A DNA stretch of 64,000 nucleotides from Planctomycetota bacterium (GTDB taxonomy: Bacteria; Planctomycetota; UBA8108; SXIK01): assembly GCA_965223265.1 (NCBI GenBank), contig OZ244999.1:6560001-6624000 (forward strand). The letters are read 5' to 3'. The notes below the pieces were generated by a model that worked only from the letters and a program-made list of their open reading frames with translations, ran no database searches and had not been told where the DNA came from. Both the position numbers and the translations under genes were made by a program. Each line of letters begins with the position of its first letter. Within the stretch, counting starts at the first letter, position 1. Shown here one piece after another: positions 15,951 to 31,984 of the stretch.

Positions 15951-16874
15951 TCAGCTCAAGAGTTCGGCTTGGTACTTCTTCAACTGATTCTTAAGCCGAA
16001 AGATGATACGGGAGTGAAGCTGGCAGACGCGAGACTCGGAGAGATTCAGTGTCGCACCGATCTCGCGCATGGTGAGATCTTCGTAGTAGTAGAGAAGCAG
16101 GATGAGACGTTCCTTGCGACTCAACCCCTTCGTAATGAACTCCGTGATCTCCTTGCGTTTCAACTCGTACTCGGGATCGACGCCTTTCTTGTCCTCGAGG
16201 ACATCGATCTTGCGAAGCGTTTTCGATCCCTGATCTTCTTTCGTCTTGTCGGTCAAACTGACGATCGTGATCGCGCTCGCTTCGCGGATCAACTCGTGGT
16301 ACTCGTCGATCGAGATCTCGAGCGATTGGGCCATCTCCATGTCGGTCGGAACACGGCCGAGCTGGACCTCGAGAGTCTTCCACGTCGTCTCGATGCGATT
16401 TGCCTTATTGCGAACGATGCGAGGCACCCAGTCGAGCGAGCGTAACTCGTCGAGGATGGCGCCCCGAATGCGTGTCGTGCAGTAGGTCTCGAACTTGACG
16501 CCGCGGCTGAGGTCGTAGCCGTTGACGGCGTCCATCAAACCGAAAATACCGGCACTCGTAAGGTCATCGAGCTCAATATTCTGCGGCAGTTTCGCCAGCA
16601 GGCGCTCAGCGATGTATTTGACCAGCGGTAGGTATCGTTCGATGAGGATGTTGCGAAGTCGTTCGTCGCCTGTGCGTTTGAAATCGCGCCACACCTGCTC
16701 TATGTCGATGCCGGAATCTTTGACAGCGCGAGCGCCGCCTCGCTTCGTTGTCTTGGCGACGCGAGTCCGTGGCCTTGCGGGGCGCGAGGCCGCCAAGCGG
16801 CTCTTCCCCGGCTTCACAAGCGCACCGGCGGAAGTCGTTTCTCGAGTTCTCTTACGTTCTCTGGCTCCGCTCAC
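15951..16874 (-). CDS. fliA: FliA/WhiG-family sigma-28 factor
   Basis: YLPLVKYIA, GVKFETY, RIRGAILDELRSLDWVPR, YYEDLTMREIG...SESRVCQLH. Confidence 0.95.
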   Translation of the reverse strand: MSGARERKRTRETTSAGALVKPGKSRLAASRPARPRTRVAKTTKRGGARAVKDSGIDIEQVWRDFKRTGDERLRNILIERYLPLVKYIAERLLAKLPQNIELDDLTSAGIFGLMDAVNGYDLSRGVKFETYCTTRIRGAILDELRSLDWVPRIVRNKANRIETTWKTLEVQLGRVPTDMEMAQSLEISIDEYHELIREASAITIVSLTDKTKEDQGSKTLRKIDVLEDKKGVDPEYELKRKEITEFITKGLSRKERLILLLYYYEDLTMREIGATLNLSESRVCQLHSRIIFRLKNQLKKYQAELLS

Positions 16875-17127
16875 CGCGGTTCCTCCACACTTCTTCCGAC
16901 CCGCTGCTGCGGTCCGGCACTCTTCTCAAGATCAGTCGGTCGAATGCGGCCCTCACGGTCGATTTGCACGTCGGTTGGTCAGGCCATCAATTTCGCGGCC
17001 CCCTCCTCCCTCGAATACAGTCGGGGCCAACTTCGCTTCTCTTCTCGCTGCGTTGACGCAGCAACCCAATCAAAAACGCTATTCGGCCGAGAAACTGAGT
17101 CTTCGACTCGAAGCGCCTCGTCGTAGG

Positions 17128-17976
17128 CTATTGACTCTTCATTCCATAGACGGCAGTTGCGAACTTACGAATGAACCCAGTCGCTGGTGCCTGCTCTGAG
17201 ACGATTTTCTCCGCAATCAGCCGAATCTTCCGGGCGGCCGACGACTTCGGTGAGCCGACGACGAACGGGACGCGCCGCCGAATCGCATGGCTGACGCGCT
17301 GATCCGTGGGAACAAAACCCAGACCATCGACTTCGAGCGATAGGAATTTCTGCGCCACCATCCGGATGCGCTCGAACACTCGCCCCGCTTCCCGAGCGTC
17401 CCGACACTGGTTGACGATCAATCGAATGCGTCCACGTCCCTTCTCTCTGGCCACCGCCTTGATCACCGCGTACGCATCGGTCATCGCGGTTGGTTCCGGA
17501 ATCGTGATAACCAACACCTCGTCAGATATCGCCGCAAACTGAACCACATTCTTCGAGATTCCCGCCGCCGTGTCGAAGATGACGACATCGAAGCTGCGAC
17601 CGAGATCCTGAAAGCCCTGCACGAGGAAGTCTCGCTCCGCTTGTTCCAAGTCCGAAATGTGTCTGACACCGGTACATCCGGAAAGGAGCGTGACGCCAAA
17701 GGGTGTTGGCACCAAGGTGTCGCGAACACTCGTTTCCCCTGAAAGAACATGGCCGAGGTTGTAGCGCGGCTGTACCGATAACATCACGTCGACGTTCGCT
17801 AGGCCAATGTCGAGATCGACGAGGGCAACGCGCTTGCCAAGCTGCACCAGCGAAACCGCCAAGTTGACGGCGCAACTCGATTTCCCGACGCCACCTTTGC
17901 CGCTCGCGACGGCCAAGAACTTCGCTCGCCCCTCCTCCCCTGCGACAAGGTCCCTCAGCTTCTTTGCCTGGTCCAT
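17128..17976 (-). CDS. flhG: FlhG/FleN MinD-like ATPase
   Basis: MDQAKKLR, ASGKGGVGKS, DLDIGLANV, PEPTAMTDAYA; lies between flhF and fliA. Confidence 0.92.
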   Translation of the reverse strand: MDQAKKLRDLVAGEEGRAKFLAVASGKGGVGKSSCAVNLAVSLVQLGKRVALVDLDIGLANVDVMLSVQPRYNLGHVLSGETSVRDTLVPTPFGVTLLSGCTGVRHISDLEQAERDFLVQGFQDLGRSFDVVIFDTAAGISKNVVQFAAISDEVLVITIPEPTAMTDAYAVIKAVAREKGRGRIRLIVNQCRDAREAGRVFERIRMVAQKFLSLEVDGLGFVPTDQRVSHAIRRRVPFVVGSPKSSAARKIRLIAEKIVSEQAPATGFIRKFATAVYGMKSQ

Positions 17977-17985
17977 GTGGCACCT

Positions 17986-19179
17986 TCAATGAACTGCGTT
18001 CTTGAGCACAAGATCGGCAAGTCGTTCTGGATCGCCGGGCATGATGTCATCCGGGACATTTTGACCATCGGTGATGAATGACACGGGCCGTCCGATCGTA
18101 AAAAGCGCTTTCACGAGCGCGCCGAAGGAAACGGTCTCGTCGACCTTCGTCAGGATCACGGCGTCAAAATCGATCCCCATGAAGCGGTTCGCGATATTCT
18201 CCAGAGTCGAACCGTGAGTCGTGGTACTCAAGACGAGGTGCGTCTCGACATCCGGCAGCACGGATAGAAATCCTCTCAGCTCGGCCATCTTGAGTTCGTC
18301 GCGATGACTGCGGCCGGCGGAATCGATGAAAACAAGATCCACCTCTCGCTCGCGAAATTCATCGATAACATCGCTCAACTCCTGCGGCTGCGCGGCCACT
18401 GCCATTGGTAGCCCGATGATCTCCGCATACTTCTCCAACTGGTCGATCGCAGCGATACGGAACGTATCGAGCGTCACGAGACCAACCCGCATCCGTTCAT
18501 TGATCTTGGCCCGTGCAGCCAGCTTTGCGATGGTCGTTGTTTTGCCGACGCCGGTCGGGCCAACGAGTGCGATCAAACGCGGCTTGATCTTCTTGTTGAG
18601 GGGCGGGGACGGGAGAAAGAGCTGCGTCAACTGGGAATGGACGACTGAACGCACTCGCGCGGGCTCCGGAAATCCTTCCGGAATCTTCAGCGTCGCGATG
18701 TGCTGCGAGAGCCGATCAGCGATCTGGGGATCGACCTCCTTCGAGATCAGGAGCTCGTAGCATTCCGAGAGAAACGGATGGTCATACTTCTGAAGCCCGC
18801 CGGTGCGAGAGACAAACTCCCGGATTTCTTGGCGGATTTGACTCAGGGCGTTGGCGAATTCTTCGTACGACGCAGACGATTGATCTTCGCTTGCCTCGGT
18901 CGCTGGGGTCTCGACTGGAGCCGAGCCGTTCATGGTTTCCGCGCGACTGGGTACGATCTTCCGAGTTCGATTCAGATTCTCTCGCTTGACGTTCTCGATT
19001 CGAGATCGCGTGTCCGCAGCGAACACTTCGACCACCTCGCGACCGCCGAAGCCGAGAACCCCTCCACGCCGAAACGTCCGCGTCTTGACGATCATCGCGT
19101 CGCTCCCCAGCATGGTGCGAACCTTTTCTAAGGCCTCGTCCATGGTGGGGGCTTCGACTCTCGTGAGTCGAAAACTCAT
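17986..19179 (-). CDS. flhF: SRP-family GTPase FlhF
   Basis: GPTGVGKTTTIAKLA, DTFRIAA, DSAGRS, TKVDE, GQNVPDD. Confidence 0.95.
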   Translation of the reverse strand: MSFRLTRVEAPTMDEALEKVRTMLGSDAMIVKTRTFRRGGVLGFGGREVVEVFAADTRSRIENVKRENLNRTRKIVPSRAETMNGSAPVETPATEASEDQSSASYEEFANALSQIRQEIREFVSRTGGLQKYDHPFLSECYELLISKEVDPQIADRLSQHIATLKIPEGFPEPARVRSVVHSQLTQLFLPSPPLNKKIKPRLIALVGPTGVGKTTTIAKLAARAKINERMRVGLVTLDTFRIAAIDQLEKYAEIIGLPMAVAAQPQELSDVIDEFREREVDLVFIDSAGRSHRDELKMAELRGFLSVLPDVETHLVLSTTTHGSTLENIANRFMGIDFDAVILTKVDETVSFGALVKALFTIGRPVSFITDGQNVPDDIMPGDPERLADLVLKNAVH

Positions 19180-19274
19180 ACTCTCTTCCTCCTTTTGCTC
19201 GCTTTTCTGTCCACTGTTTTCATCGCTCAGCTTCGCGGCGACCTCCTACGCCCCACGACGATCGATATCGGCGG

Positions 19275-21413
19275 CTATGCAACGTGCTTCAACGCAACGA
19301 CACCACCGCTTTCGACTTGGATGTCGTCTGGAACCTCCTCATAGGCCAAAACCGGAAGATCCGGAAGTCGACGCTGGACCCAACGCTGCAGAAGCGGTCG
19401 CACGACGCCGGGGCAAAGAACGACTGTCGGCGCAGACTGATCTTCGACCGAGTCATAGCTCTGCGCCAGCGCGTCCGAAACGAGTCGTTCAAGCTCGGAG
19501 CTCGACGACTCGTCCGTCTCTTCGCCACCACCAGCCGCACGCTGAAGCATTTCCTCGTCAGCTGGGGAAAGATAAAGCGCCCGTAGCCTACCGTTAGGCC
19601 CTGCGATGACTCGACAGATAACGTCGCCCATAGAGCGCCGCACGCGTTCAGCAAGAAGCATCGGATCGCGGCACTCGCCGACGTTTTCAGCAAGAACTCC
19701 GAGTATCGATTCGAGGTCGCGGATCGAAATCCTTTCGCTCAGTAGCCTCTGCAAAACCTTGTGCAGCTCGGTGAGCTTCAAAACTCCTGGCACGAGCTCC
19801 CCAACCAGAACCGGGGAGCGATCTTTGAGATCGGCAACAAGCCGCGCCGTCTCCTCTCGCGTGAGAATCTCCGCAGCTCGCGCTCTAACGACGTCGTAGA
19901 GGTGATCAGAAATCAACTCTGGAGTCGTCCTCATCGTCGACGCAGCGCTCGCTGGCGAGGCGCCTTGGTCGTTCTTGATCCATGCCCCTTCTTGTCCGGT
20001 TATGGGGTCCTCACCGATCTTCGCGTGCGGGACCTTCGCCTGCGGCGCAATCGGCGAAACAAAGACGTGATCCGGATACACACGCCAAGCGCCAAGGGAC
20101 TGACCGCGCAGTCGGATCGAATACTCCGTCGGGCGCAGGCGAATGTTGTCACGAACCTTCACAGCGGGCATGACGAACCCAAGTTCCAGCGCAATTCTCT
20201 CTCGTACCCGAGCAAGACGGTCAAACAGATCGCCCCCACGCCCCTCGTCGACAAAGCCGACAAGTCGAAAGCCAACCTCGAGCTCGATCGGCTCGAGGAC
20301 AAGCAACGACCGGACCGATTCCGGCGAAGCGCCATGCGGTTCTGCGAGCTCAGGCTCGTCGAACGGTTCCTCGGAGGGATAGTCCTCTTCCAGACGCGGC
20401 CGGCGCAGGTACAGCCCGATTCCAAAGCAGACTCCGGCACCCGCAATCAGTACGAGCTTTGGCAGCCCCGACGCCAGCAGCAAGAGCAGAAATCCTCCGA
20501 GGACGAACAGCACGCGGTCGTTGACGAACAACTGCCTTGTCATGTCCCGACTCAAGTTCTCACCGCCGGTGTTCTTGGTCACCAACAACGCAGTCGCGAC
20601 GCTCACCAAAAGGGCCGGCACCTGGCTGACCAGCCCGTCGCCAATCGTGAGCCGTGTGTAGACCTCGGCTGCCTGAGCAATGCCCATGTTGCCCAAGCCC
20701 GCGCCGATGCAGAACCCAGCCACGATGTTGACGAAAGTAATGATGAGACCCGCCACCGCTTCGCCGCGCACAAACTTGCTGGCTCCATCCATCGTGCCGT
20801 AAAAGTCGGCTTGCTCGCTGAGCTCACTCCGAAGCTCCCGCGCAGTCTCTTCGTCGATCAACCCAGATGAATAGTCGTTGTCGATGCTCATTTGCTTCCC
20901 CGGCATGGCATCGAGAGCGAACCGGGCGGCGACCTCGGAAATACGTGTCGCCCCCTTCGTAATGACGACGAACTGAACGACAACGATGATCGCGAAGACG
21001 ATCAAGCCGACGACGATGTTGTCGCCAGCAATAAAGTTTGCGAACGCGTCGATCACGCCACCAGCCGGCTGTGAAGCGCCGGGAACGCTACCAAGGATCA
21101 GTCGCGTTGTCGCGATATTCAACGAGAGTCGGAAAAACGTGATCAGTAGAAGCAGCGACGGAAACACACTGAACTCGAGCGGTGACGCGAGACACGCTGT
21201 GGTCATGAGGATCAGCAGCGAGACAGTGATGTTCAGGACCAGCAGCGCGTCCATAAGCCCTGGCGGAAGCGGGACCAGGATGACGAACAGCACAGCGAGA
21301 AGCCCCGCTGGCACGGCGATGTCGGCTCCGAACCCGGTGCGTCCGAAGGAGTGTGCGTCAAAGTGAGTCTCGCGACTCTGATCGCCAGGATCGGCTCGTC
21401 CCATCTCTTCCAC
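19275..21413 (-). CDS. flhA: export gate protein FlhA
   Basis: FSVFPSLLL, RLSLNIATTRLIL, ITKGATRISEVAARFALDAMPGKQM, FYGTMDGASKFVRG. Confidence 0.96.
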   Translation of the reverse strand: MEEMGRADPGDQSRETHFDAHSFGRTGFGADIAVPAGLLAVLFVILVPLPPGLMDALLVLNITVSLLILMTTACLASPLEFSVFPSLLLLITFFRLSLNIATTRLILGSVPGASQPAGGVIDAFANFIAGDNIVVGLIVFAIIVVVQFVVITKGATRISEVAARFALDAMPGKQMSIDNDYSSGLIDEETARELRSELSEQADFYGTMDGASKFVRGEAVAGLIITFVNIVAGFCIGAGLGNMGIAQAAEVYTRLTIGDGLVSQVPALLVSVATALLVTKNTGGENLSRDMTRQLFVNDRVLFVLGGFLLLLLASGLPKLVLIAGAGVCFGIGLYLRRPRLEEDYPSEEPFDEPELAEPHGASPESVRSLLVLEPIELEVGFRLVGFVDEGRGGDLFDRLARVRERIALELGFVMPAVKVRDNIRLRPTEYSIRLRGQSLGAWRVYPDHVFVSPIAPQAKVPHAKIGEDPITGQEGAWIKNDQGASPASAASTMRTTPELISDHLYDVVRARAAEILTREETARLVADLKDRSPVLVGELVPGVLKLTELHKVLQRLLSERISIRDLESILGVLAENVGECRDPMLLAERVRRSMGDVICRVIAGPNGRLRALYLSPADEEMLQRAAGGGEETDESSSSELERLVSDALAQSYDSVEDQSAPTVVLCPGVVRPLLQRWVQRRLPDLPVLAYEEVPDDIQVESGGVVALKHVA

Positions 21414-21455
21414 TTCTCTAGTGCGACGGACGTCAAACGCGTCCGACCGCAGGTG

Positions 21456-22223
21456 TCACTGCAGCGGTTCCCTACGCTCTCGCAACTGGGCGCGGCGGCG
21501 CGCTTTTACACTTTGGTTTCCGTCCTCACGCAGCGCTTCCTCGCGCACTTCGGCGCGCGTCATCCGAAGGCTTCCCTCGAGAAACCATCGCTGCACGCCA
21601 TAGTCGATGGCGCCCAGCACGACGAGTGCCAGCGCCAACTGTAGTGCGAATCTCAGCACGTTTTCCCAAGTCCCGACCCATGGAGACTCACTCGCCGCGA
21701 ACCCACCGCGCGTCACAAACCCGGCGAGGGCAAACCAGAACATCAGCCCGACGACGAGCAGCTTCAAGGCCGCAAAAATGCCCCGAGCCACACTCGAAGG
21801 AGCCAGCAGTCGTGACAAGCCTGATAGCGGAGCGACGCGGCCCCACTGGGGCAGCACGATCTGCGGAAGAAAAACCCACACCCCTTGCAGAGCGAAACAG
21901 AGGACCATCGTCAGGCAGGCAAACACCGCGATCGGAAAGACACTGGCGGCAAGATATGATGAGAGCTTCCCCGACAGAGTCGCCAGCCCCCCCTCGGTGA
22001 CGAGTTGCCTGGCGTCGTTGAGCTGCGAAAGAGTGCTGCTGGTGAAGCGGAAGGTCTGATCGGCGAGCTGCGGCATCAGCCATCCGAGGCAGGCGAACGT
22101 CGCGAGCAATGAGAAGGCGACGGTCAAATCGCGACTCTTTGCGATCTGACCGCCTTGTCGAGCCTCCCTCCGTCGTCGTGCGGTCGGCTGTTCAGTCCGC
22201 TGCTCTTTGTCATGATCAGCCAT
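21456..22223 (-). CDS. flhB: FlhB, membrane part only (C-terminal NPTH domain absent)
   Basis: RTEQPTARR, QIAKSRDL, LRMTRAEVREE...DGNQSVKARRR then stop; no NPTH. Confidence 0.88.
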   Translation of the reverse strand: MADHDKEQRTEQPTARRRREARQGGQIAKSRDLTVAFSLLATFACLGWLMPQLADQTFRFTSSTLSQLNDARQLVTEGGLATLSGKLSSYLAASVFPIAVFACLTMVLCFALQGVWVFLPQIVLPQWGRVAPLSGLSRLLAPSSVARGIFAALKLLVVGLMFWFALAGFVTRGGFAASESPWVGTWENVLRFALQLALALVVLGAIDYGVQRWFLEGSLRMTRAEVREEALREDGNQSVKARRRAQLRERREPLQ

Positions 22224-22322
22224 GTGGATTTCCTCGGTCGCAGAACTGCTCGAAGAGACGACCGTGCACCGAGCACCTCACGACAGCACCTAAAGTCAGA
22301 TCCACTCTTGTGCGGTGCGTTT

Positions 22323-23129
22323 TCAATTCACGAACCCCTGCACTGATAGCCGACTCTCGGAAACCGCGGCGTCGAAAAACCGCGCGCAGGTGTCGACGAA
22401 GAACGGGAGCGAAAGCGCCACGACTCCAAGGGCAACGAGCGTACGAAGAAGGAAGCCGAACACGACAGTCTCCAGCTCTGGAAAGAGCCGACTCAAAAAC
22501 CCCTGAGCAACGGAAGCCAAGAGGAGGACGGCAGAAACCGGCAGGACGAGTATCGGCACGGCTTGGAGCAGTAAGGCGCCGACCATCAGCGTGATGCGAC
22601 CGAGGCCGGCTGCAAGACCGTCGGCAGTGAGTTGCCCGGGAGCGATGATCTGGAAGCTGTCGGCAACGGCTCTCAAGATCTCGTGATGAACCTCGACTGC
22701 AAGCAGCGTGAATGTCGCGAGACCACCGTACAGAAGCTTCAACACAGAATCGCCAGCGTCGGCATAGGGATCCAGAAATCCACCAAACGCGAAGCCAGTC
22801 TGCTCGCCGATGAGCGTCGCCGCCGAGCGTACCGCAGCGATCACCAGCAGCGAGGCAGCTCCGATCGCTGCGCCGATGACCGCTTCGCCGAGGATGGTCG
22901 GCAGGAGCGCCAGCGAAACGGGCGGGACGGCTGGCGCCGGCGGCAATCCTTGGAGCAGCGCGAAGGCCAACAAGACAGACACCGCGAGTCGAAATCGAAA
23001 CGGCAGAATACGGCTGGAAAGAACCGGCAACGTCATTGCCAGACCCATGAGACGAGCGGCCGCGAGAAGCGGCACCGCACCGATTCCACTCCACAGCGTT
23101 GACCAGGTTGTCGACGCTATATCGATCAT
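22323..23129 (-). CDS. fliR: export gate protein FliR
   Basis: Polytopic; ARLMGL...PVL, GEAVIG, IGEQTGF, GFLSRLFPEL; lies between fliQ and flhB. Confidence 0.9.
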   Translation of the reverse strand: MIDIASTTWSTLWSGIGAVPLLAAARLMGLAMTLPVLSSRILPFRFRLAVSVLLAFALLQGLPPAPAVPPVSLALLPTILGEAVIGAAIGAASLLVIAAVRSAATLIGEQTGFAFGGFLDPYADAGDSVLKLLYGGLATFTLLAVEVHHEILRAVADSFQIIAPGQLTADGLAAGLGRITLMVGALLLQAVPILVLPVSAVLLLASVAQGFLSRLFPELETVVFGFLLRTLVALGVVALSLPFFVDTCARFFDAAVSESRLSVQGFVN

Positions 23130-23153
23130 GAAAAGACCTCGGCCCTACGCATC

Positions 23154-23435
23154 TCAGCTACCGAGAACCACATTCATCATGGTTGTCAGCACACTCCGGG
23201 TGTAGTCGGTCACAACATTCAGGATCCACGGCATGAAAAAAAACAGCGTGGCCGCCATCGCAAGTAGCTTCGGAATGATCGAGAGCGTCTGTTCCTGAAT
23301 TTGCGTCACCGCTTGAAAGATGCTGACGAGTAAACCAATGACTAGCCCCACGACAAGAACAGGCAACGCAATCTGCATCGCCGTGAAAAGCGCGCCTCGA
23401 CACAACTCCGTTGCAAGGTCCAGCTGATCCATCAA
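23154..23435 (-). CDS. fliQ: export gate protein FliQ
   Basis: GLLVSIFQAVTQIQEQTLSIIPK. Confidence 0.96.
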   Translation of the reverse strand: MMDQLDLATELCRGALFTAMQIALPVLVVGLVIGLLVSIFQAVTQIQEQTLSIIPKLLAMAATLFFFMPWILNVVTDYTRSVLTTMMNVVLGS

Positions 23436-23452
23436 TCTTTCGACGCCACCCT

Positions 23453-24346: not shown

Positions 24347-24348
24347 GG

Positions 24349-24528
24349 CTAACAGCCCGTTGAAAGAGTCATTCGGCCGAGAACGGGCCTCCGTACGCTC
24401 AGCTCGAACGCGTCAATACTCGCCGTAGTACCTTAGAGAAGAGGGCCGGGGATTACCTGCGCTGGTGACACCCGATCTGGATGCGAAGCGACCGGTTTTC
24501 GACTCGAAGCACTTTTTCAATCAGTCTG
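24349..24528. mobile_element. MITE-like element between fliO and fliP
   Basis: CTAACAGCCCGTTGAAAGAGTCATTCGGCCGAGA...GGTTTTCGACTCGAAGCACTTTTTCAA, a reverse-orientation copy of the 13902 element. Confidence 0.75.
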
Positions 24529-24573
24529 GAAACCTCAATTCAGCGATTGGATTGGCGCCCTTGAGATCCCGCG

Positions 24574-25284
24574 TCACGGGCTGCGTTCGAAACGCTCGCC
24601 CTCACTGCCAGAGCGCCAATTCTGAAGCAAACTACGCAACCTCGTGACTTCACGCCGATACGGCGTCAAGTCATCGGTGAGTTTCGAAGAAGAGGGATTC
24701 CCACCGCAGGATTCACCGTCCTCAGGATCATCACCCCGAGACTCGCTGTGCGGGCGGAACCAGTACGGGTCCCCGCCGCCGCCCTTGGCAGTGACCGCCG
24801 AATCGAGCGTCAAGGGTGAAACACCCTCGGCGCCGGCATGAACACTGCTCGGTCGGTCGAAAACCGCTAGTGTGGAGATGTTGTCCGGAGTCACGCCGAC
24901 AACAAGCTCGCGATCTCGAACTCGAAGTACCCAGACAGAGTGACGCGGAGAGAGCGCCAGACGATCGACAAGACGAATGTCGTCTCCCGAAGTGCCGACT
25001 CCTAGCCTGCCACGCCGTCGGCGACGATAGACGAACGCGAGACAGCCGACGAGACCGAGCCCGGCTGCAATGTAGCCGACGAGCTGCAGCCTATCCCGAG
25101 CAGGCGAAACACTACTTCGCGCTGGCAGTTCGCGAGCTGAGCGCAGCGGCTGAATCGTGTCTCCAGGCCGAACGTACCCGCCGCTACGAGCGGTTTCAGC
25201 CTCCACCCTAATGCCCGATAGAGTGACGGTGACTGCGACGACGACGGCAGCAATGAGCTTGCCGAATCCTGTTGCTTTCTTCAT
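24574..25284 (-). CDS. fliO: FliO/FliZ-like chaperone
   Basis: TM followed by IRLVDRLALSPRHSVWVLRVRDRELVVGVTPDNISTL; lies between fliN and fliP. Confidence 0.8.
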   Translation of the reverse strand: MKKATGFGKLIAAVVVAVTVTLSGIRVEAETARSGGYVRPGDTIQPLRSARELPARSSVSPARDRLQLVGYIAAGLGLVGCLAFVYRRRRRGRLGVGTSGDDIRLVDRLALSPRHSVWVLRVRDRELVVGVTPDNISTLAVFDRPSSVHAGAEGVSPLTLDSAVTAKGGGGDPYWFRPHSESRGDDPEDGESCGGNPSSSKLTDDLTPYRREVTRLRSLLQNWRSGSEGERFERSP

Positions 25285-25706
25285 GCTCCCTCCCCATGAC
25301 TGCTGCCCGGGGTTGGCAGAACTTCGGTAACACGGACGCAGAAGCAGTTGTTGAGCACGAGGATCTCACCCCGAGCCAAGAGGATGTCGTTGACGTACAG
25401 GTCTACCGGCTCGTCGGTCCCTCGATCTAGTTCGAGCACAGACCCGCTCTGTAAACGCAAAACGTCCCGCAGCGGCATCCGGCGTCGCCCAAGCTCGACC
25501 CGAACGTCGAGATGGAGCTGCCGGGTGAGCTCAGGAATGGAGTCTTCCACTCCACTGGCAGACACACGATTCTTCGCGGGCGCGGCGACCTCCGCCTCCT
25601 CAGCCGGAAGATCAAGAACCGGCGTCAGGTCGGCGGGAATGTTCGTAGAATCGAGCGCCTCGGCCAGAAGATCGCTCGACTCATCACCTTTTTTTGACGC
25701 GACCAT
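25281..25706 (-). CDS. fliN: C-ring protein FliN (SPOA domain)
   Basis: LDVRVELGRRRM...GSVLELDR...PVDLYVN...ARGEILV. Confidence 0.92.
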   Translation of the reverse strand: MVASKKGDESSDLLAEALDSTNIPADLTPVLDLPAEEAEVAAPAKNRVSASGVEDSIPELTRQLHLDVRVELGRRRMPLRDVLRLQSGSVLELDRGTDEPVDLYVNDILLARGEILVLNNCFCVRVTEVLPTPGSSHGEGA

Positions 25707-25835
25707 TCTCTAATCTCCTACGGCTCGACGTTCGTCCCTACCTCTGGTTCGAACGCCAGACGACTCTTCAACTCGCTCTGTCCCTTCACTTCTTCACCTC
25801 TTGTCATGCGACGGCACCCGCTGACGAGCTCTCTC

Positions 25836-26300
25836 TCAACCGTTCGTGCCTCCGGGGACAGGGTCAAACCTCTCCCTGCCGCGTGAGACCCGGGAGATGA
25901 CGGCGTCCTCGTAGTCACGCTCGCGCAACCTTGACTCACGCGCCACAACATCGCGCCGCCGACGCGCCACCAATCTGTCAGTTGCTTGGAGACGGTTCTC
26001 GTCTCTCACCCACTCTTCGAGCCGGACTTGGAGGCGCGTTTGAAGTCGCTGCAACGCGCTCTCAAGAGTCAGTTTCGCGGCAACTCTCTGAGCGAGAGCA
26101 CGGCGCCTCTCAGGCTCACTCAGCGTCGCGTCCGCGTCGACACGCTCGCACCCTTGGAGACAATTGCGCATCCGTCGCTGCAGCACATCGAACTCCTGAT
26201 GAGCGCTCAGGTAGAGGGCCTTGCTACGCGCCAGGTCCAGTTCCCTCAAGCGACGCAGCGCCTGCATCGACCGAATGGTCTCATTTCGTGCGTCAGTCAT
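25836..26300 (-). CDS. fliJ: FliJ-like coiled-coil stalk protein
   Basis: Helical ORF of about 150 aa overlapping the fliI stop; LRRLREL near the N-terminus; assignment mainly positional. Confidence 0.6.
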   Translation of the reverse strand: MTDARNETIRSMQALRRLRELDLARSKALYLSAHQEFDVLQRRMRNCLQGCERVDADATLSEPERRRALAQRVAAKLTLESALQRLQTRLQVRLEEWVRDENRLQATDRLVARRRRDVVARESRLRERDYEDAVISRVSRGRERFDPVPGGTNG

Positions 26301-27627
26301 GCACAGCCTCCTCCACATCACCCGCTGCTGCTGTCAACGCTACGAGACGATCCACTGTGCTGGCGAGTTCGCTCGTCTCGAACTCGCTCTGCCGCAAGAA
26401 CGCCTCGATTTCGGGGTAAACCTTCAAAGACGCGTCGATCTGTGGATCCGTGCCCAAGGAGTAGGCGCCCAAACGCACAAAGTCCTCGACTTGACGGTGA
26501 CGTGCCAAGTGCGCTCGCGCCCTGTTGGACGCCGCGAGATGCTGCGGCGTCACGATGCGGCTCTGCGCTCGACTCAGACTAGACAGCGGATCAATCGCGG
26601 GGAAATGCCCCTTCTCCGCCAAGTCACGACTGAGCCAGAGGTGACCGTCGAGAATTCCTCGTGACGAATCGGCGATCGGATCGTGGCGGTCGTCGGCCTC
26701 GACGAGAACTGAGAAAAAACCGGTGACGCTTCCCGCCTCCGTCGGCCCCGCGCGCTCAAGAAGTCGCGGCAAAAGGGCGAATACAGACGGCGGATAACCT
26801 CGAGTCGTCGGTGGTTCGCCGCAGGAAAGCCCTAACTCCCGTTGAGCGGTCGCGACGCGAGTGAGCGAATCCATGAGCAACAGCACCTCGTGCCCCTGGT
26901 CACGGAAGTGCTCCGCGATCGCCGTGGCGACGAACGCAGCTTGAATGCGTCGCAGTGCGGACTCCTCGCTCGTGGCAGCCACAACGATGCATCGACTGAG
27001 GCCATCGTTACGGAGAACCTGCTCGACAAAATCTCGCACCTCGCGACTACGCTCGCCGATCAGCCCGATGACGACGATGGACGCCTCCGTGTGCCGCGCA
27101 ATCATACCGAGAAGCATGCTCTTGCCGACACCGCTGCCGGAGAAGATCCCCATTCGCTGGCCGCGCCCGACGGTCACCAACGAATCGATCACGCGCACGC
27201 CTGTAGCGAGTGGGCGTCGGATCTGCGCACGACTCAATGGGTTTTCAGGGGGGCGATAGAGAGGCACATCGACACCGCGGGAGAGCCGTCCATCGTCGTC
27301 GAGAAGCCGCCCCTCGGAGTCGACGACGTGGCCAACCATGTCATTGCCGACCCGGACTGTGGTGGTCTCTCCTTCGTAGACGATCCGATCGCCGGCGGAG
27401 ATACCGCGCAGGTCATCAAAAGGTGCAACGAATGTATTCTCACGCCGAAAACCGATCACCTCCGCAGCCAGTCGGCGACCGTTGCGACACGTGATCTCGC
27501 ATCGTGCACCGAGCGGCGCGAAGAGCCCACGCGCCTCGACCGTGAGGCCGGAGACGCGGTGAACGCAGCCTTCGATCCGTGCCGCGAAAGCGCTGCGGAC
27601 GATCTGCTCCAGACCGTTCATGTCCAA
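26293..27627 (-). CDS. fliI: type III export ATPase FliI
   Basis: GQRMGIFSGSGVGKS, IGERSREV, LLLMDSLTR, GEPPTTRGYPPS, GILDGH. Confidence 0.96.
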   Translation of the reverse strand: MDMNGLEQIVRSAFAARIEGCVHRVSGLTVEARGLFAPLGARCEITCRNGRRLAAEVIGFRRENTFVAPFDDLRGISAGDRIVYEGETTTVRVGNDMVGHVVDSEGRLLDDDGRLSRGVDVPLYRPPENPLSRAQIRRPLATGVRVIDSLVTVGRGQRMGIFSGSGVGKSMLLGMIARHTEASIVVIGLIGERSREVRDFVEQVLRNDGLSRCIVVAATSEESALRRIQAAFVATAIAEHFRDQGHEVLLLMDSLTRVATAQRELGLSCGEPPTTRGYPPSVFALLPRLLERAGPTEAGSVTGFFSVLVEADDRHDPIADSSRGILDGHLWLSRDLAEKGHFPAIDPLSSLSRAQSRIVTPQHLAASNRARAHLARHRQVEDFVRLGAYSLGTDPQIDASLKVYPEIEAFLRQSEFETSELASTVDRLVALTAAAGDVEEAVHD

Positions 27628-28649
27628 CGCTCCCGCTGCAGATCACGTCCATCCTCGTGGCGGCGACGCGCTTTTGACACAACGTTTTCTGCACCGACGT
27701 CGTGTGCGTCGACACCGCCCTGCACGCGGCCCGCCGCCATGGCCGACACATTCGTACTTTGCAGCAGCGCGTCTTCAACTGCCTTCGTCACCAGCTCCAA
27801 CTGCACCCCTATGCTCTGGTCGACGATTCCCGTCCCCGAGACGACGCGACAACCACCGCGGTCGACGTCGACACACTCGGCAACTTCGATGGCTTCGAAT
27901 CCTTCGATCCAACGAGGCTTGCGGCTCAAGATCTCCCGGAACGCCGCGGCATCGTCGGGATGAAGCTGTACCACAACGTCACCGCGGCGAAACGTCAAGT
28001 CGACGGCGCTCTGAACGTTGCGCAGTGCGACCTCGCTGTCGTGAGCAATCTCGTGCTTGAGAATCTTGCGAGCGATCTCTTTGGCAATCAGGACGACCTG
28101 CGACGACAGGTCGGCAAAGGAGTCGTCGAACTTCCCCTGCACGTCGCGCACGGCGGTCGTGAACGCGCTCGCGAGATGAGCCAGCTCTGATCGAGCCTCC
28201 GTCCTTCCCGCATCGATCCCTTCTCGCTCGCCGGCGTCATAACCAGCGCGATACCCTTCCTCATAGCCTTCCTTGCGCCCAGCTTCGAACCCAAGCTCTC
28301 TGCCGGCAGAGGCCGCCTCATCCTGCGCCAGGTCGAATGCCTCTGTAGCCATCTGCTGACGCCGATCGATCTCCGCTCGCACGTCCTGCTCGTGGCGCTC
28401 AAAGTCCTTGCGCGCACAAATCCAGCGCTCACGGATTTCATCCTCAAGCCGCCGGCGTAATCCCTCGAGCTCTTGGAGCCGGTCGCGTGCCGTGCGGATC
28501 AAAGAGGTGCAGATCGCATCGACGCCGCGCTGCTCGACATGCTTTGAGAAATCTCTGCGGCGCGACGGCGCGTCCTCCCCCGTCGTGACAGCACGAATCA
28601 CACGTCCGCTCCCTGCCAAGCTCTGCCGATCGTCAGGCACTTGTCTCAT
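27618..28649 (-). CDS. fliH: FliH/SctL
   Basis: GxxxG repeats (GFEAGRKEGYEEGY), VQLHPDD, RGGCRV. Confidence 0.9.
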   Translation of the reverse strand: MRQVPDDRQSLAGSGRVIRAVTTGEDAPSRRRDFSKHVEQRGVDAICTSLIRTARDRLQELEGLRRRLEDEIRERWICARKDFERHEQDVRAEIDRRQQMATEAFDLAQDEAASAGRELGFEAGRKEGYEEGYRAGYDAGEREGIDAGRTEARSELAHLASAFTTAVRDVQGKFDDSFADLSSQVVLIAKEIARKILKHEIAHDSEVALRNVQSAVDLTFRRGDVVVQLHPDDAAAFREILSRKPRWIEGFEAIEVAECVDVDRGGCRVVSGTGIVDQSIGVQLELVTKAVEDALLQSTNVSAMAAGRVQGGVDAHDVGAENVVSKARRRHEDGRDLQRERWT

Positions 28650-29989
28650 GGCGTCGGCCTCCGCTCAGCGTCTCGCTTCTGGTCAGAGAGTTCGCGCACG
28701 AGCTCTGTGGTCACGCCGCCCTCATGAAGCTCGAAGATGCCTTCGAGAACGCGGCGACGAGCAGCTTCGACTTCGAGAAGGCGAGTTGGTCCGAGAGCCT
28801 GGATCTTCTCGCGTAGACGCTCCCCATGACGCCGTGACAGGTTACGTGTCACCTTCTTGAAAACCTCGCGCCCCGTGCTCTTCAGTGCCATCGCGAGGTC
28901 ATTGGGATCGACCCTTTTGAGCGCCTTCTGAAGGTACCTGTCCTCGAGCTGGATGAGCTGTTCGAAGACGAGGAGATGCTTGCCGACCTCTTCGGCAATC
29001 TCCGGTGCGACCTGCTTCATGTGGTCAAATGACTCGGCCGCTTCGTCACGGTTAGACGCCCTGAGAATTTGAGCGACAGCTTGAGCGCCCGTCTGACCAG
29101 AGAGCGATGCGAATCGTGCCCCCGACAGCTGCGTCTTCAGGACTCTTTCGACAGCACGAAGAGCTTCCTGCGAGGCGCCGTCGAGCGTGGCCAGACGTCG
29201 AAGAACACCATGGCGACGCTGCGGGGTCAGCCGTGCCAAAACGTCGGAGGCGAGTGCCGGACCAACGTGTGCCAGGACGATCGCTACGGTTTGCTCCCGT
29301 TCGTCTTGCAGGCAGGAGAGAAGACTTTCGCCGTTGACGTGCTTTGAAATCGAAAAATGCTTGCGGCCGTGATGGGCAGCCAAGAGCCGCAGCAGGTGAT
29401 CGGCCTTCTGCGGCGCGATCGAACTTCTGATGAGCTTTGATGCCAACTCCCAGCCGCCCTCTTGGACAACACCTTGGGCTCGCTCGATGTCGTGAAACTC
29501 CTCGATCACCTCCATGACGGCGTCTCGATCCACGACACCAAGGCTAGCGATCTCCGCAGTGACGCGACTCATCTCCTCGTCGGAAAGGCAGCGTAGGAGA
29601 CGTGAAGCCGCTTCCTCATCGAGCGCGAGGACGAAAATGGCGGCTTTCGAGATTCCCTTCAGCTGAGTGCGACGCGGGTCAGGATGACGCGGGTCAGGGT
29701 GACGGGGGGCGAACGCTCCGACGGTGCTTTCGTCTGCGGGACTGGTGCGGCTGTCAGCGCTCGACAGCAGGTGAGACGGCGGAGCCCCTTCGTCAACGGC
29801 GACGAAGTCGTGGTCGAGGTCTGCTGCGTCCTCAGGCTCACCGTCGTCGAGCCGCTCCGCACCATCAAACTCCGCGGCAGCGTCCTCAGGCTCAAGGTCC
29901 GTAGACGAGCGCGCGGTCTCATCGAGGTGAGTACGACGGTAACGTCGGCCTTGAGATTCCTGATCGACCGCGATGGCGTCGACTTCCAT
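28646..29989 (-). CDS. fliG: C-ring protein FliG with an acidic N-terminal extension
   Basis: GISKAAIFVLAL, EREQTVAIVLAH, LVFEQL, DLAMALK, NLSRR, GPTRLLEVEAA. Confidence 0.9.
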   Translation of the reverse strand: MEVDAIAVDQESQGRRYRRTHLDETARSSTDLEPEDAAAEFDGAERLDDGEPEDAADLDHDFVAVDEGAPPSHLLSSADSRTSPADESTVGAFAPRHPDPRHPDPRRTQLKGISKAAIFVLALDEEAASRLLRCLSDEEMSRVTAEIASLGVVDRDAVMEVIEEFHDIERAQGVVQEGGWELASKLIRSSIAPQKADHLLRLLAAHHGRKHFSISKHVNGESLLSCLQDEREQTVAIVLAHVGPALASDVLARLTPQRRHGVLRRLATLDGASQEALRAVERVLKTQLSGARFASLSGQTGAQAVAQILRASNRDEAAESFDHMKQVAPEIAEEVGKHLLVFEQLIQLEDRYLQKALKRVDPNDLAMALKSTGREVFKKVTRNLSRRHGERLREKIQALGPTRLLEVEAARRRVLEGIFELHEGGVTTELVRELSDQKRDAERRPTP

Positions 29990-31668
29990 CAGTGCGCATC
30001 TCCTTCGGCCTGGAGCGAAGACTTAGAGTCTTCTGAAAGCCACACGCGCACCACCGACGCCGCTGCCTGGGGCCGCTCACAGACCCATTGGCTCGCGCGT
30101 TCGACTGAGCCGAGAAAGGACTCTGGCGTCGCAGCTTGCTCTGCTTTGGCACCGTACCCACCCACTTGAGACGTGTCGTCCGCGACTTCCTCTTGTTGAG
30201 CCGCAGCTCCTTTGCGACCGGTTGCAACGCGCCGCCGCGCCGCACGGCGGCGCCAGAAAAGACCGACGAACGCGACAAGGACGACACCAGACGCAGCGCC
30301 GGCAACCCAACGCTTCGGCTGAGAATCGAACAAGACGAACAACGACCCGAAGGCGCGTTGGAACGACTGCAAGGCCGAAGTCGGCTCACTGGCGGCCGTT
30401 GACTCGCCGGTCGCTGGGTCGTTCCCCACCTCCTCGGTGCCAGCGCCTTCTTCGGTGTCTACCACGGTTGCAACCCCTTGGGGTTCAGTGTCGCCATCGT
30501 CAGGCCTCACGACGATCAAGACGTGAGACACAAACGGCGCAAAGTGTGTCAGCAGCTGACGTCGGTGCGCATCTTCAAACCAGCGTAGTTCTAGCGAGCC
30601 GTCGTCGCTGTCGACACCATCAGCGACGCTGCACGATAAGCGCAGCACGGCCGATTCGGCGAGTGTGACACGAATCCGTGCCGCACCGGCGAGCTCCACT
30701 ACATCCGCGCTGGATCCGCTCGCGGCGTGCCCGGCGGCCGGCGACGCGCCACCTACGTCGCTGCCGGCATCGTCTCCCAACGCTTCGTCTCCGATGGCGC
30801 CGTCTCTTGTGGTAGCGTCATGGGCGACGCTCGGAACTGGCTGAAAAGTACCAATGCCGCCGGCAGCGCCATGTGCAGCCGCTCGACGCGGCACGCCTCG
30901 AACAACGCGCACGGAGACGTCGAATTCGTGCGGCGGCAAGACGCCGCCGTAGAACTCACCCAAGCCATCGAGCAGCCACTCGTGTAGCTCTTCGGGCGTC
31001 CGAGGTGCACTCACCCGTTGAGTGTAGACGTTCCCGTGATCGTCGGTGATCGAAACTCGGTCCGCGCCGAGGTTGAATGACCTGCTGACCATCTGACGCA
31101 CGGCACGGGCTTGACGTGCAGGCAGTCGCATCACGCCGTGCCCGAGCGTAAGAAAAACCGAGGCCGTACCGTCTGCCGCGTCGTGGAGGCGCCCTCCCCG
31201 CGGCTTGTTCAGTTCGACCGTGGCCCGGGCGACGGTACTGTAGCCCTCGATGTTGCGGCTGATGCGCTTGCGCTTCAAATCTGCGTTCCGATCTGAAAGC
31301 CAGGTCGAAGGCACCCACGGGGACGGTGGCTTGTCAAACGCATTCGGCGGTTCGGCCGACTCGACCTCAAGAAGCTTGACGGCACGGGGCAGTTGATCGA
31401 CCGCGACCTCGAGGCGACTACCGCCAGCCGCCGGGGCAGCGCGGACGATGATCCCCGCCCCCTCGAGCCGCTGGCGGAGGGCCGCGACTTCGTGATCCGA
31501 GGAGTCGAGGAGCACGACGAACTCAGGCCTAGGAACGGTCGTCGCCCCCCACACAATCAAACCAAGCGCCGCGGCCATGACGCCGACGTAGGCGAGCCTT
31601 TGCAGTGGCGACAGCGACTGCCAGAGGTTCCTCACCTCAGCTTGAATTCGGTGCACGAAGGGTCTCAC
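29989..31668 (-). CDS. fliF: divergent MS-ring protein FliF (start could be 31710)
   Basis: N-terminal TM, ring motif VARATVEL...ASVFL...VSITDDHG, second TM, C-terminal PQAAASVVRVWL; overlaps the fliG start. Confidence 0.78.
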   Translation of the reverse strand: MRPFVHRIQAEVRNLWQSLSPLQRLAYVGVMAAALGLIVWGATTVPRPEFVVLLDSSDHEVAALRQRLEGAGIIVRAAPAAGGSRLEVAVDQLPRAVKLLEVESAEPPNAFDKPPSPWVPSTWLSDRNADLKRKRISRNIEGYSTVARATVELNKPRGGRLHDAADGTASVFLTLGHGVMRLPARQARAVRQMVSRSFNLGADRVSITDDHGNVYTQRVSAPRTPEELHEWLLDGLGEFYGGVLPPHEFDVSVRVVRGVPRRAAAHGAAGGIGTFQPVPSVAHDATTRDGAIGDEALGDDAGSDVGGASPAAGHAASGSSADVVELAGAARIRVTLAESAVLRLSCSVADGVDSDDGSLELRWFEDAHRRQLLTHFAPFVSHVLIVVRPDDGDTEPQGVATVVDTEEGAGTEEVGNDPATGESTAASEPTSALQSFQRAFGSLFVLFDSQPKRWVAGAASGVVLVAFVGLFWRRRAARRRVATGRKGAAAQQEEVADDTSQVGGYGAKAEQAATPESFLGSVERASQWVCERPQAAASVVRVWLSEDSKSSLQAEGDAH

Positions 31669-31963
31669 CGCGACCTCAGAGCCAGTCCGGGCGGCGACGC
31701 CCAGCAGCAATCCTCTTCCGAGAAAAAAAGGGAAAAGGAACGAGCGTCCACGACCAGAAGACCCGTCCCCGTTTCCCGTCTCTCCTAGCGGCCAAAACCG
31801 CTAAGCTCCAACCCCGAATGCTCCAAACTCTTCTCTCTTCACTCACGACAGCTGACCCGCGGGGGGAGCAGCCGCAATCCAAGGGCGCCGGGCTTGGAAA
31901 TCCTTCCGTAACCCCAAGTTATGGCTCTGGAGCACTCGAGAGCTGGTCCGCTAACATAGCGAC

Positions 31964-31984
31964 TGTTTTACAAAGTGTAAAGCA
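31964..31984. promoter_or_regulatory. palindromic operator TTTACA-N3-TGTAAA upstream of fliF
   Basis: TGTTTTACAAAGTGTAAAGCA; near-identical site at 32562-32576. Confidence 0.45.

Follow-up and report, generated by a model that had tools for sequence, protein, structure and literature searches.

A flagellum-derived type III export operon without rod, hook, filament or stator genes in a large planctomycetotal genome

We examined a stretch of 64,000 nucleotides (the window, G000:C1:6560001-6624000; in our labels G### denotes genomes, f# families, g# genera and L### loci) from a Planctomycetota bacterium whose genome, G000, is a single contig (C1) of 9,179,496 bases with a GC (guanine plus cytosine) content of 0.608 and a marker-gene completeness of 91.65%. 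On the minus strand, at 15951-31710, 15 consecutive open reading frames (ORFs) with intergenic gaps of -29 to 253 base pairs (bp) form a flagellar operon that lacks every rod, hook, filament and stator gene. The apparatus it encodes cannot build or turn a flagellum, and this remnant of the operon probably has a job other than swimming. Pfam names 14 of the 15 ORFs, in the order fliF-G-H-I-(J?)-N-O-P-Q-R-flhB-flhA-flhF-flhG-fliA. A first interpretation of this DNA, made without database searches (the sequence-only reading), had described the same fliF-to-fliA operon; its coordinates, strand and order stand for those 14 genes, while fliJ is left without any family support. No frameshift or stop interrupts any of the 15 ORFs, and the G000 cluster has no extra unassigned ORF besides the FliJ candidate. 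The genes, all on the minus strand, are as follows.

29989-31710, minus: fliF, MS-ring protein, 573 amino acids (PF01514 YscJ_FliF, E 3.8e-10)
28646-29989, minus: fliG, 447 amino acids (FliG_N, FliG_M and FliG_C domains)
27618-28649, minus: fliH, 343 amino acids (PF02108, E 3.4e-16)
26293-27627, minus: fliI, export ATPase, 444 amino acids (ATP-synt_ab, 1e-84, and T3SS_ATPase_C)
25836-26321, minus: putative fliJ, 161 amino acids (named from its size and its position between fliI and fliN only)
25281-25706, minus: fliN, 141 amino acids (PF01052, E 1.6e-23)
24574-25284, minus: fliO, 236 amino acids (PF04347, E 5.3e-12)
23453-24346, minus: fliP, 297 amino acids (PF00813, E 1.1e-65)
23154-23435, minus: fliQ, 93 amino acids (PF01313, E 1.4e-28; exceeds the NCBIfam fliQ cut-off)
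22323-23129, minus: fliR, 268 amino acids (PF01311, E 1.1e-38)
21456-22223, minus: flhB, membrane domain only, 255 amino acids (PF01312, profile positions 1-239 of 335)
19275-21413, minus: flhA, remodelled, 712 amino acids (FHIPEP, E 3.6e-214)
17986-19179, minus: flhF, signal recognition particle (SRP)-type GTPase, 397 amino acids (SRP54 domain; exceeds the NCBIfam FlhF equivalog cut-off)
17128-17976, minus: flhG, MinD/ParA-type ATPase, 282 amino acids (ParA/CbiA families; recognised at the MinD/ParA family level only)
15951-16874, minus: fliA, sigma-28, 307 amino acids (Sigma70 regions 2, 3 and 4)

The catalytic motifs, which the sequence-only reading had called intact, are so on inspection: FliI retains its Walker A (GSGVGKS) and Walker B (LLLMDS) motifs, FlhF its G1, G3 and G4 motifs (GPTGVGKTT, DSAGR and TKVD), FlhG the deviant Walker A (KGGVGKS), and FliA its regions 2, 3 and 4, with a FliA_WhiG subfamily score of 261 bits against a cut-off of 189.6. 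FlhA, FliP, FliQ and FliR, which form the gate, exceed the Pfam gathering scores, as does FliO, and flagellar NCBIfam models outscore the Sct models for FlhA, FlhB, FliP, FliQ, FliR and FliI (for FliI, 558 bits with FliI clade 1 versus 518 with SctN). Among the gate proteins FliQ alone reaches its equivalog cut-off (FlhA scores 683.6 versus 772.1, FliP 208.8 versus 217.45). Aligned to a solved FliP, the methionine-gasket region of FliP reads GMFM in a strongly conserved context. FliG carries an acidic N-terminal extension of ~108 amino acids common to G000, G001 and G002. The FliF C-terminal domain (PF08345) was undetected in FliF of G000 and of five other loci of this reduced kind (hereafter stripped) and was seen in 2/3 flagellated relatives, but the scores are marginal and deserve little weight. 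The FliJ candidate is rich in Arg, Glu and Leu; it matched nothing in Pfam (E up to 0.5), NCBIfam or a PDB sequence search (E up to 10), and an hhalign comparison with the ORFs of five relatives gave a probability of 0.2%, from a poor five-row alignment in which one row only has a Pfam FliJ match. The gap between this ORF and fliN is exactly the 129 bp noted from the sequence, and flhB and flhA are 42 bp apart.

The missing parts are missing from the whole genome and not just from the operon. Genome-wide family searches, each run with positive control genomes, returned no match in the one-contig G000 genome for the rod/hook domains (PF00460 and PF06429), flagellin (PF00669), FliE (PF02049), FlgD (PF03963), the P-ring protein FlgI (PF02119), the MotB plug (PF13677), FliS (PF02561) or the filament cap FliD (PF07195). 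The same Pfam models detect rods and flagellins in 9/9 flagellated relatives of the class, and both are missing also from all three family sisters of G000 and from all 14 sampled genomes of family f2. The window FlhB is the sole PF01312 match in the genome, with no second FlhB and no free FlhB C-terminal domain (FlhB-C) anywhere, nor does the genome hold a second FlhA/SctV or FlhB/SctU gate. Two MotA_ExbB matches were considered as stators and rejected, since both adjoin ExbD genes and are of the ExbBD type. A phmmer search of all G000 ORFs of at least 50 amino acids, with queries from the flagellar loci of three flagellated relatives, matched only the window cluster, and so did a tblastn search of the raw genome with 134 ORFs (at least 100 amino acids) from those loci, the relatives' FlgC, FliK, FlgD, FlgE and MotB finding nothing in G000. 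Because both searches match the cluster alone, there are no detectable pseudogene remnants, as had been asserted from the operon itself, and the absence of rod, hook, filament, stator and full-length FlhB extends to the genome and its sisters.

One claim of the sequence-only reading was wrong at the level of the genome, namely that FliM had been lost. An orphan fliM and a second fliN-like gene lie far from the operon:

G000:C1:5124176-5125669: fliM (FliM and FliMN_C domains), with an N-terminal extension of ~175 residues, adjoining an enolase gene
G000:C1:5426083-5426364: second FliN-like gene, 93 amino acids, adjoining gatCAB

Flagellated relatives, too, have fliM away from the main operon; that the operon lacks it is therefore the ancestral condition and not a loss. 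The earlier inventory of kept and lost parts thus stands for the axial and stator parts lost and for the MS ring, gate and ATPase kept, and has to be enlarged by FliM, the second FliN and FlgM, the last of which had been missed although its gene lies inside the window.

The operon of flagellated relatives in the same class reads (flgB)-flgC-fliE-fliF-G-H-I-(J)-fliK-flgD-flgE-(motB)-...-fliN-O-P-Q-R-flhB-flhA-flhF-flhG-x-fliA, with an flhB of 364-370 amino acids. The premise on which the losses had first been proposed, that flgC-fliE precede fliF and that fliK-flgD-flgE-(motB) lie between fliJ and fliN, is therefore sound for this class. Downstream of fliA in G000 is a nickel-insertion (LarC-like) gene (window 14461-15852), and because the same gene occupies this position in the flagellated G005, the G000 operon is the ancestral one, which has stayed in place, and it departs from the ancestral arrangement by two clean excisions and a truncated flhB. 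Judged by amino-acid identity of G000 to G001, G002 and G005, in that order, the most conserved operon proteins are FliA (79%, 72% and 79%), FlhF (74%, 64% and 46%), FlhG (62%, 53% and 54%) and FliP (61%, 48% and 47%).

This state is widespread in the class. Among 41 class genomes, G000 included, FlhA is present in 39, rod domains in 9 and flagellin in the same 9; 31/41 have FlhA without rod or flagellin. All eight stripped loci that we examined contain FliF, FliP, FliQ, FliR, FlhB, FlhA, FlhF, FlhG and FliA, and most contain FliO. Beyond this set, family f1 (G000 and three others) has FliM and FlgM in 4/4 genomes, FliG_C and the FliI C-terminal domain in 3/4 and FliE in 0/4. Family f2 falls into genera g9-g11 (FliM 3/4; FliG_C, FliI and FlgM each 4/4) and genus g5, which has FlhA and FlgM in 9/10 genomes and FliM, FliG_C and FliI in 0/10; in one g5 genome (G011) FliF is followed by a 202-amino-acid protein with a FliG_N domain only. 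Counting across the two families, FlgM is kept in 4/4 genomes of f1 and 13/14 of f2. In f5, genus g13 has FliE, FliG_C and FliI in 3/3 genomes, FlgM in 2/3 and FliM in 0/3, and the middle domain of its FliG is deleted. The stripped genera of f6 (g14, g17 and g18) have FliI in 11/11 genomes and FlgM, FliM and FliG_C in 0/11; the loci that were read there also contain FliH and a FliJ supported by Pfam.

Two of these lineages show features of their own. G022 (g13, L101) has no rod or flagellin, yet it has FliE, a full-length FlhB, all 86 of the invariant FlhA columns described below and a FliG minus its middle domain, and a sigma-54 activator and a histidine kinase lie directly upstream of fliE-fliF; the g13 form may be a younger or a mechanistically different stage of reduction. 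In the stripped f6 loci L102-L104, from three genera, a protein of 582-618 amino acids with no Pfam match is encoded directly downstream of fliA on the same strand and is a candidate for a lineage-specific partner or substrate.

Across the phylum, an even sample of 151 genomes contained FlhA in 85 and FlgD in 80, and had no FlhA in 66. FlgD alone is an imperfect marker, as the flagellated G021 has no FlgD match but has rods, and we therefore counted a genome as stripped only if FlgD and the rod domain were both missing. FlhA without either occurs in 8/151, namely G000, four f6 genomes, and G043, G083 and G166 from three other families. The named public sequences nearest to G000 FlhA are from Planctomycetota, mostly metagenome-assembled genomes of Phycisphaerae. 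Real decay is also found in the phylum: at G156:C1:618299-620040, in a 99%-complete genome, an FlhA frame is interrupted by at least 17 stops.

A tree of 55 FlhA rows, of which 30 are stripped, 7 come from flagellated members of the class and 18 from named outgroups (LG+G4, quick search in IQ-TREE, leaving out the fragmentary FlhAs of G013 and G032), places the class in one clade and G000 FlhA within the flagellar FlhAs of its own phylum. The stripped rows fall into three separate clades, each with a support of 100: f1+f2 (stem length 0.35), g13 (stem 0.26), which is sister to the flagellated G028 of the same family, and the stripped f6 genera (stem 0.71), sister to flagellated f4 and f6 rows. 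Constraining the stripped rows to one clade costs 84 log-likelihood units and is rejected (approximately unbiased test, p-AU 0.00086), and the separation is conservative because long-branch attraction would unite them. Ratios of nonsynonymous to synonymous substitution (dN/dS, Nei-Gojobori) for stripped FlhA pairs were 0.069 (G011-G020, dS 0.50), 0.153 (G023-G035, dS 0.13), 0.194 (G030-G033, dS 0.17) and 0.279 (G022-G024, dS 0.26), as compared with 0.093 and 0.136 for two flagellated pairs; G000-G001 is saturated (dS 2.3, ratio 0.19). Relaxed selection, which the sequence-only reading had named as a sign of decay, is thus not seen, and FlhA is under purifying selection in the stripped lineages.

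The retained proteins have been edited in specific places. G000 FlhB, aligned to the full-length FlhBs of relatives, stops shortly after the KxRRR linker and is without the whole NPTH autocleavage domain, in agreement with the earlier observation that it lacks its switch domain. In 6/6 profile-tested stripped loci of f1, f2 and f6, FlhB ends ~10-25 residues past this linker and before NPTH, whereas that of three flagellated relatives and of G022 runs through the NPTH domain. In a survey of public sequences restricted to the best 150 of 5,669 FlhB-like cluster representatives, 66/150 were at most 310 amino acids long (median ~267; one or more of these short entries are fragments cut off by the edge of a contig), an NP[TE]H motif was found in 0/66 short versus 49/84 longer clusters, and 19/20 of the top clusters were short.

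For FlhA we used as reference the 86 alignment columns that show no variation across 25 flagellar FlhAs, drawn from many phyla. G000 keeps 72/86, the other f1, f2 and stripped f6 rows keep 74-81, and g13 keeps 86. Positions were mapped to the 692-residue solved chain 36hw, which we take to be from Salmonella. The equivalents of the transmembrane charged residues R147, R154, D158 and K203 are kept, and that of D208 is E in f1 (4/4); these residues presumably serve in the ion path, and T490 presumably in docking. The numbering used here matches that of the Salmonella residues in 10.1101/2022.03.25.485897, according to which F459 sits in a conserved hydrophobic dimple that recognises substrates and chaperones. 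The F459 and T490 columns are invariant in 25/25 flagellar references and are kept in g13 (3/3). In f1 they read T (4/4) and D (4/4), respectively; both are replaced in 12/12 f2 rows, and in stripped f6 the F459 column is replaced in 9/11 and the T490 column in 11/11. Loss of FlhB-C and replacement of the FlhA docking residues came about independently in two clades (f1+f2 and stripped f6).

The C ring has changed as well. The LSQxEVDALL-type N-terminal peptide of FliM, which is present in 4/4 flagellated relatives and which we take to bind CheY, is absent from 4/4 f1 FliMs. At the charged helix of FliG, presumably the site of stator contact, G000 reads RRH..REK..GPTR where 6/6 flagellated relatives read KRA..QEE..GPVR, and both FliG and FliM of f1 carry conserved N-terminal extensions. 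These changes would fit a ring kept for export or docking and not for rotation. Taken over all components, the transport engine is conserved, while the parts for flagellar substrate selection, chemotaxis input and torque are not.

Elsewhere in the genome, at G000:C1:334332-337585 on the plus strand (L111:6332-9585), two tandem genes each fuse an N-terminal TIR domain to a homologue of the FlhA cytoplasmic domain (FHIPEP positions ~320-655, E 1e-51 and 5.6e-63). Their docking-dimple columns are also unlike those of flagellar FlhA. The pair adjoins an astacin-like peptidase and a phage-sheath-like gene; the first TIR resembles the defence-type bSEFIR and ThsB, and no PADLOC system matches the pair.

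The window also contains the gene of the anti-sigma factor and a promoter for it:

51091-51363, minus: flgM, anti-sigma-28, 90 amino acids (PF04316, E 3.3e-9, 37.3 bits versus a cut-off of 25)
51521-51548, minus: canonical sigma-28 promoter TAAA-N16-GCCGATAA, 158 nucleotides upstream of the flgM ATG

Most probably flgM begins with the ATG at 51363, which a GGGAGGGG ribosome-binding site precedes, although the longest ORF extends to 51474. The strict sigma-28 pattern has three sites genome-wide, and similar elements lie upstream of flgM in G001 (TAAA-N16-CCCGATAA) and G002 (TTAA-N16-GCCGATAT). A sigma-28/FlgM module, consisting of a FliA-family sigma factor, FlgM and a sigma-28 promoter on flgM, is present.

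The other two strict sites, near G000:C1 238872 (minus) and 3956116 (plus), mark possible members of a sigma-28 regulon; one stands 7 nucleotides ahead of the start codon (ATG) of a long ORF that has a membrane segment at its N terminus, and the other lies upstream of a ~435-amino-acid protein with a signal peptide. Relaxed scans gave 14 and 22 matches, mostly within long ORFs, and were discarded as noise, and no common sigma-28 motif was found upstream of the flagellin genes of relatives. The promoter scan also turned up four identical sequence copies near C1 912166, 2361511, 2376111 and 3476072, upstream of a 443-amino-acid ORF, presumably an insertion sequence.

Upstream of fliF lie the following elements, among them the MerR-like gene that had been recognised from the sequence and is now supported by Pfam:

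31953-31981, minus: sigma-70-like promoter TTTACA-17-TATGTT, upstream of fliF
31967-31981, minus: palindrome TTTACACTTTGTAAA, overlapping the sigma-70-like promoter
32215-32463, minus: MerR-family regulator, 82 amino acids (PF00376, E 9e-11; PF13411, E 3.6e-10), upstream of fliF
32562-32576, minus: the palindromic motif a second time (TTTATAATTTGTAAA), upstream of the MerR-like gene

The 15-nucleotide motif TTTAnAnTTTGTAAA has two occurrences only in 9.18 Mb, and a homologue of the MerR-family gene stands upstream of fliF in G001 too. Since the unique pair of palindromes lies before fliF and before the MerR-like gene, it suggests that the small MerR-like protein may regulate both its own gene and the operon.

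The ~20 kb between fliF and flgM (window 33037-55332) are syntenic in G001 (L149) and G002 (L150), and the order, including a 1085-amino-acid CarboxypepD_reg-repeat protein just upstream of flgM, is kept across three genera whose FlhAs are 51-54% identical. This stretch encodes two Ser/Thr kinases, of which one is a 1433-amino-acid kinase-AAA-TPR protein (2089 bits against G001), together with an FHA-GAF-HD protein and an ABC/FtsX pair. Some 6 kb from the operon, at window 3847-10381 on the plus strand, is a possible polarity module, whose arrangement we take to be reminiscent of MglA/MglB:

3847-7029, plus: DUF4388/TPR/beta-propeller protein, followed by a TPR protein
8377-8727, plus: Roadblock/LC7 protein
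8758-9777, plus: Arf/Ras-like GTPase
9992-10381, plus: second Roadblock/LC7 protein

What might such an apparatus do? We think it reasonably probable, though well short of assured, that it is a working, vertically inherited exporter derived from the flagellum and coupled to a sigma-28/FlgM switch. The surviving parts would comprise an MS ring (FliF), a C ring (FliG and FliN with the orphan FliM and the second FliN), an ATPase complex (FliH, FliI and perhaps FliJ), a gate (FliOPQR, the FlhB membrane domain and FlhA), the factors for placement and number (FlhF and FlhG) and the sigma-28/FlgM pair. Such a machine most likely still assembles, probably at the cell pole, and the proton-motive force together with ATP would drive unfolded protein through FliPQR; since FliE, rod and outer rings are all missing, this channel would end in the periplasm. 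Both descriptions, polar and exporting into the periplasm, we infer from gene content. FlgM would be the one recognisable surviving substrate, although there may be others, and for this reason the mechanism we prefer is a secretion-coupled switch, in which export of FlgM would free sigma-28 and so make a non-flagellar sigma-28 regulon depend on whether the machine is assembled or active.

A number of observations weigh against this exporter-and-switch reading. In model flagella FlgM is exported only after the FlhB-dependent switch. There, export needs FlhB-C, and loss of FlhB-C abolishes flagellar assembly (10.1101/2021.09.03.458937), so that export here requires compensating changes. Of the 86 invariant residues G000 FlhA has lost 14, more than any other row, among them the D208 equivalent, where the change is conservative. 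The retained set varies among the stripped lineages: g5 lacks the ATPase FliI as well as FliM and FliG_C, and the absence of FlgM from the stripped f6 genera means that the FlgM switch cannot be a universal function. The three strict sigma-28 sites compare with ~1 expected from base composition, and the flgM site alone is convincing. A look for RNA runs that contain window 19275-23129 found none listed; the stretch occurs in four runs, all from one study, as contigs of unstated library type. Finally, nearly all components score below the NCBIfam equivalog cut-offs, and FliJ is a putative label, given by position. The ATPase-less g5 is compatible with export driven by the proton-motive force only (compare PMC4230889).

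Alternatively, one could envision that no protein passes at all and that the complex is a scaffold or signalling platform, a polar landmark or an assembly checkpoint read by regulators. The parts found in 8/8 stripped loci, FliF, FliOPQR (FliO as qualified above), FlhB-N, FlhA, FlhF, FlhG and FliA, are compatible with such a role, the ATPase being found in 0/10 g5 genomes, and the two parts that recognise substrates, FlhB-C and the FlhA docking dimple, are both gone. Precedent comes from Campylobacter, in which a type III secretion system of the flagellum (fT3SS) with MS ring and rotor is needed to activate the FlgSR two-component system (PMC3760246); the sigma-54 activator and histidine kinase directly upstream of fliE-fliF in g13 and the putative MerR-type operator pair dedicated to the G000 operon would be in keeping with this. 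A pure scaffold would, however, have no use for the conserved ion-path residues of FlhA (R147, R154, D158, K203 and D208 as E), the FliP gasket or the FliI motifs, nor would it explain why FlgM, an anti-sigma factor that model flagella secrete, is kept with a sigma-28 promoter, and we regard this explanation as unlikely. To the idea that the machine builds or feeds something new, such as a periplasmic or surface structure, a membrane nanotube or a non-flagellar cargo, in parallel with the opening step that has been proposed for the evolution of injectisomes, we give little credence, although several findings point that way. The docking surface of the FlhA cytoplasmic domain is replaced and not merely degraded, with T and D fixed in f1 (4/4), the long stripped stems (0.35, 0.26 and 0.71) are followed by purifying selection, and the N-terminal extensions on f1 FliG and FliM are conserved. 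The flagellin-less fT3SS of Lysobacter enzymogenes is reported to export non-flagellar cargo (PMC7688988), and a motility-less intermediate type III secretion system (T3SS) that translocates protein has been proposed for Myxococcales (PMC3459982). Linked to the G000 operon, however, is neither a candidate cargo nor a needle, a secretin or any other new conserved gene, and flagellar models beat injectisome models for all shared components, with no second gate in the genome.

Two further explanations are unlikely. That the operon is the functionless, decaying remnant of a recently lost flagellum could be argued from the 14/86 residues lost by G000 FlhA, from the divergent FliI of G001, which has no T3SS_ATPase_C match and no fliJ slot beside it, from the stepwise shrinkage of the retained set across lineages and from the occurrence of decay in the phylum (the G156 FlhA frame with its 17 stops). 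We do not read the operon as decay because its ORFs are intact and tightly spaced, its catalytic motifs are intact and FlhA is under purifying selection: 15 ORFs remain open, dN/dS is far below 1, the state is common to whole families whose FlhAs are only 37-54% identical, and independent clades arrived at the same point of truncation and at replacement of the same residues. Moreover, complete loss is usual in the phylum (66/151 without FlhA), so unused genes are purged, and decay is thus very improbable for G000. It is scarcely credible that the organism has a complete flagellum after all, made from very divergent axial proteins or encoded on a replicon missing from the assembly. Completeness is 91.65% and short models of axial proteins can miss divergent sequences, but one contig of 9.18 Mb makes up the assembly, the Pfam models in question were positive in 9/9 flagellated relatives, rods and flagellins are absent from all three family sisters and 14 f2 genomes, and FlhB-C, FliE, FliS and MotB are missing too.

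Comparison with known systems suggests that the apparatus is known in kind. Chlamydia, which reportedly also keeps sigma-28, offers one parallel. This member of the wider Planctomycetes-Verrucomicrobia-Chlamydiae (PVC) group is likewise non-motile and keeps flagellar export-type genes (FlhA, FliI and FliF) without axial genes (PMC2830194). Chlamydia differs in having about three orphan genes beside a complete injectisome, whereas G000 has a full 15-gene operon, C ring, FliOPQR, FlhB-N, FlhF, FlhG and FlgM in a free-living 9-Mb genome with no injectisome. Lysobacter enzymogenes OH11 is likewise non-flagellated and expresses its remaining fT3SS genes, which are needed for export of non-flagellar proteins and for twitching (PMC7688988 and PMC7277350). 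In OH11 the genes for hook, rod, L-ring and P-ring are still present, as is FlgD, and FliH is missing (PMC7688988); because hook, rod and ring genes are kept, export there probably runs through a hook-basal body. G000 has no hook, rod, rings or FlgD and has lost FlhB-C. Buchnera is said to carry hook-basal bodies presumed to be protein transporters, a filament-less apparatus in a non-motile bacterium; that reduced endosymbiont keeps rod and hook, whereas G000 has lost its axial parts in a large genome.

The closest conceptual analogue of a machine ending at the inner membrane is the 'Myxo' T3SS of Myxococcales, which according to PMC3459982 (Abby and Rocha 2012) has no motility elements or secretin, has long been conserved and is argued to translocate protein. 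It differs in belonging to the injectisome (Sct) lineage, while G000 components score higher with flagellar models; the injectisome hallmarks (secretin, needle, SctD and extra ORFs) were not found in the G000 cluster. The set retained in all stripped lineages contains the CORE proteins (FliOPQR, FlhB and FlhA), which in Bacillus subtilis are reportedly proposed as a platform for nanotubes, a likeness in gene content. A hat-like inner-membrane complex related to the fT3SS core is described as a non-motility structure in 10.1101/2021.09.03.458937. CORE and hat-like structures coexist with complete flagellar genes and a full-length FlhB, whereas G000 has no flagellum and a cut FlhB, and has FliF, FlhF, FlhG and FliA in addition. 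WhiG of Streptomyces is likewise a sigma-28 family factor kept for a non-flagellar, developmental programme (PMC12871210); it works with no export apparatus, and its anti-sigma factor is RsiG and not FlgM. A full-text literature search found no description of this system in Planctomycetota, although supplementary tables might list such partial loci; PMC3459982 mentions 59 partial loci 'of flagellar origin' without analysis. On present sequence evidence, what is unusual is the free-living host with a large genome, the class-wide spread, the repeated origin and the convergent edits of FlhB and FlhA.

Reduced flagellar gene sets are usually dismissed as decay or as oddities of symbionts, and here one is found in a complete, large, free-living genome and under purifying selection; it extends over whole families and has at least three separate origins. 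This makes testable the long-standing question of what the flagellar export core does alone, and of how a motility organelle becomes a secretion or signalling device. The stripped lineages also provide natural 'minimal' versions, one without the ATPase, one without a C ring and one with FliE and a full FlhB, which could guide work on gate opening and substrate choice. For annotation, motility should not be called from FlhA and FliPQR where FlhB is short and rod and hook are missing. It is possible, though we hold it doubtful, that free-living Planctomycetota have at least three times converted the polar flagellum to a type III machine that has neither rod nor stator and exports new, non-flagellar substrates, cutting FlhB and rebuilding the FlhA docking site. 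If true, the presumed first step from flagellum to injectisome would here be replayed, more than once, in living bacteria, and, given that 66 of the best 150 of 5,669 FlhB clusters are naturally truncated, it would amount to a widespread and unrecognised secretion or signalling system.

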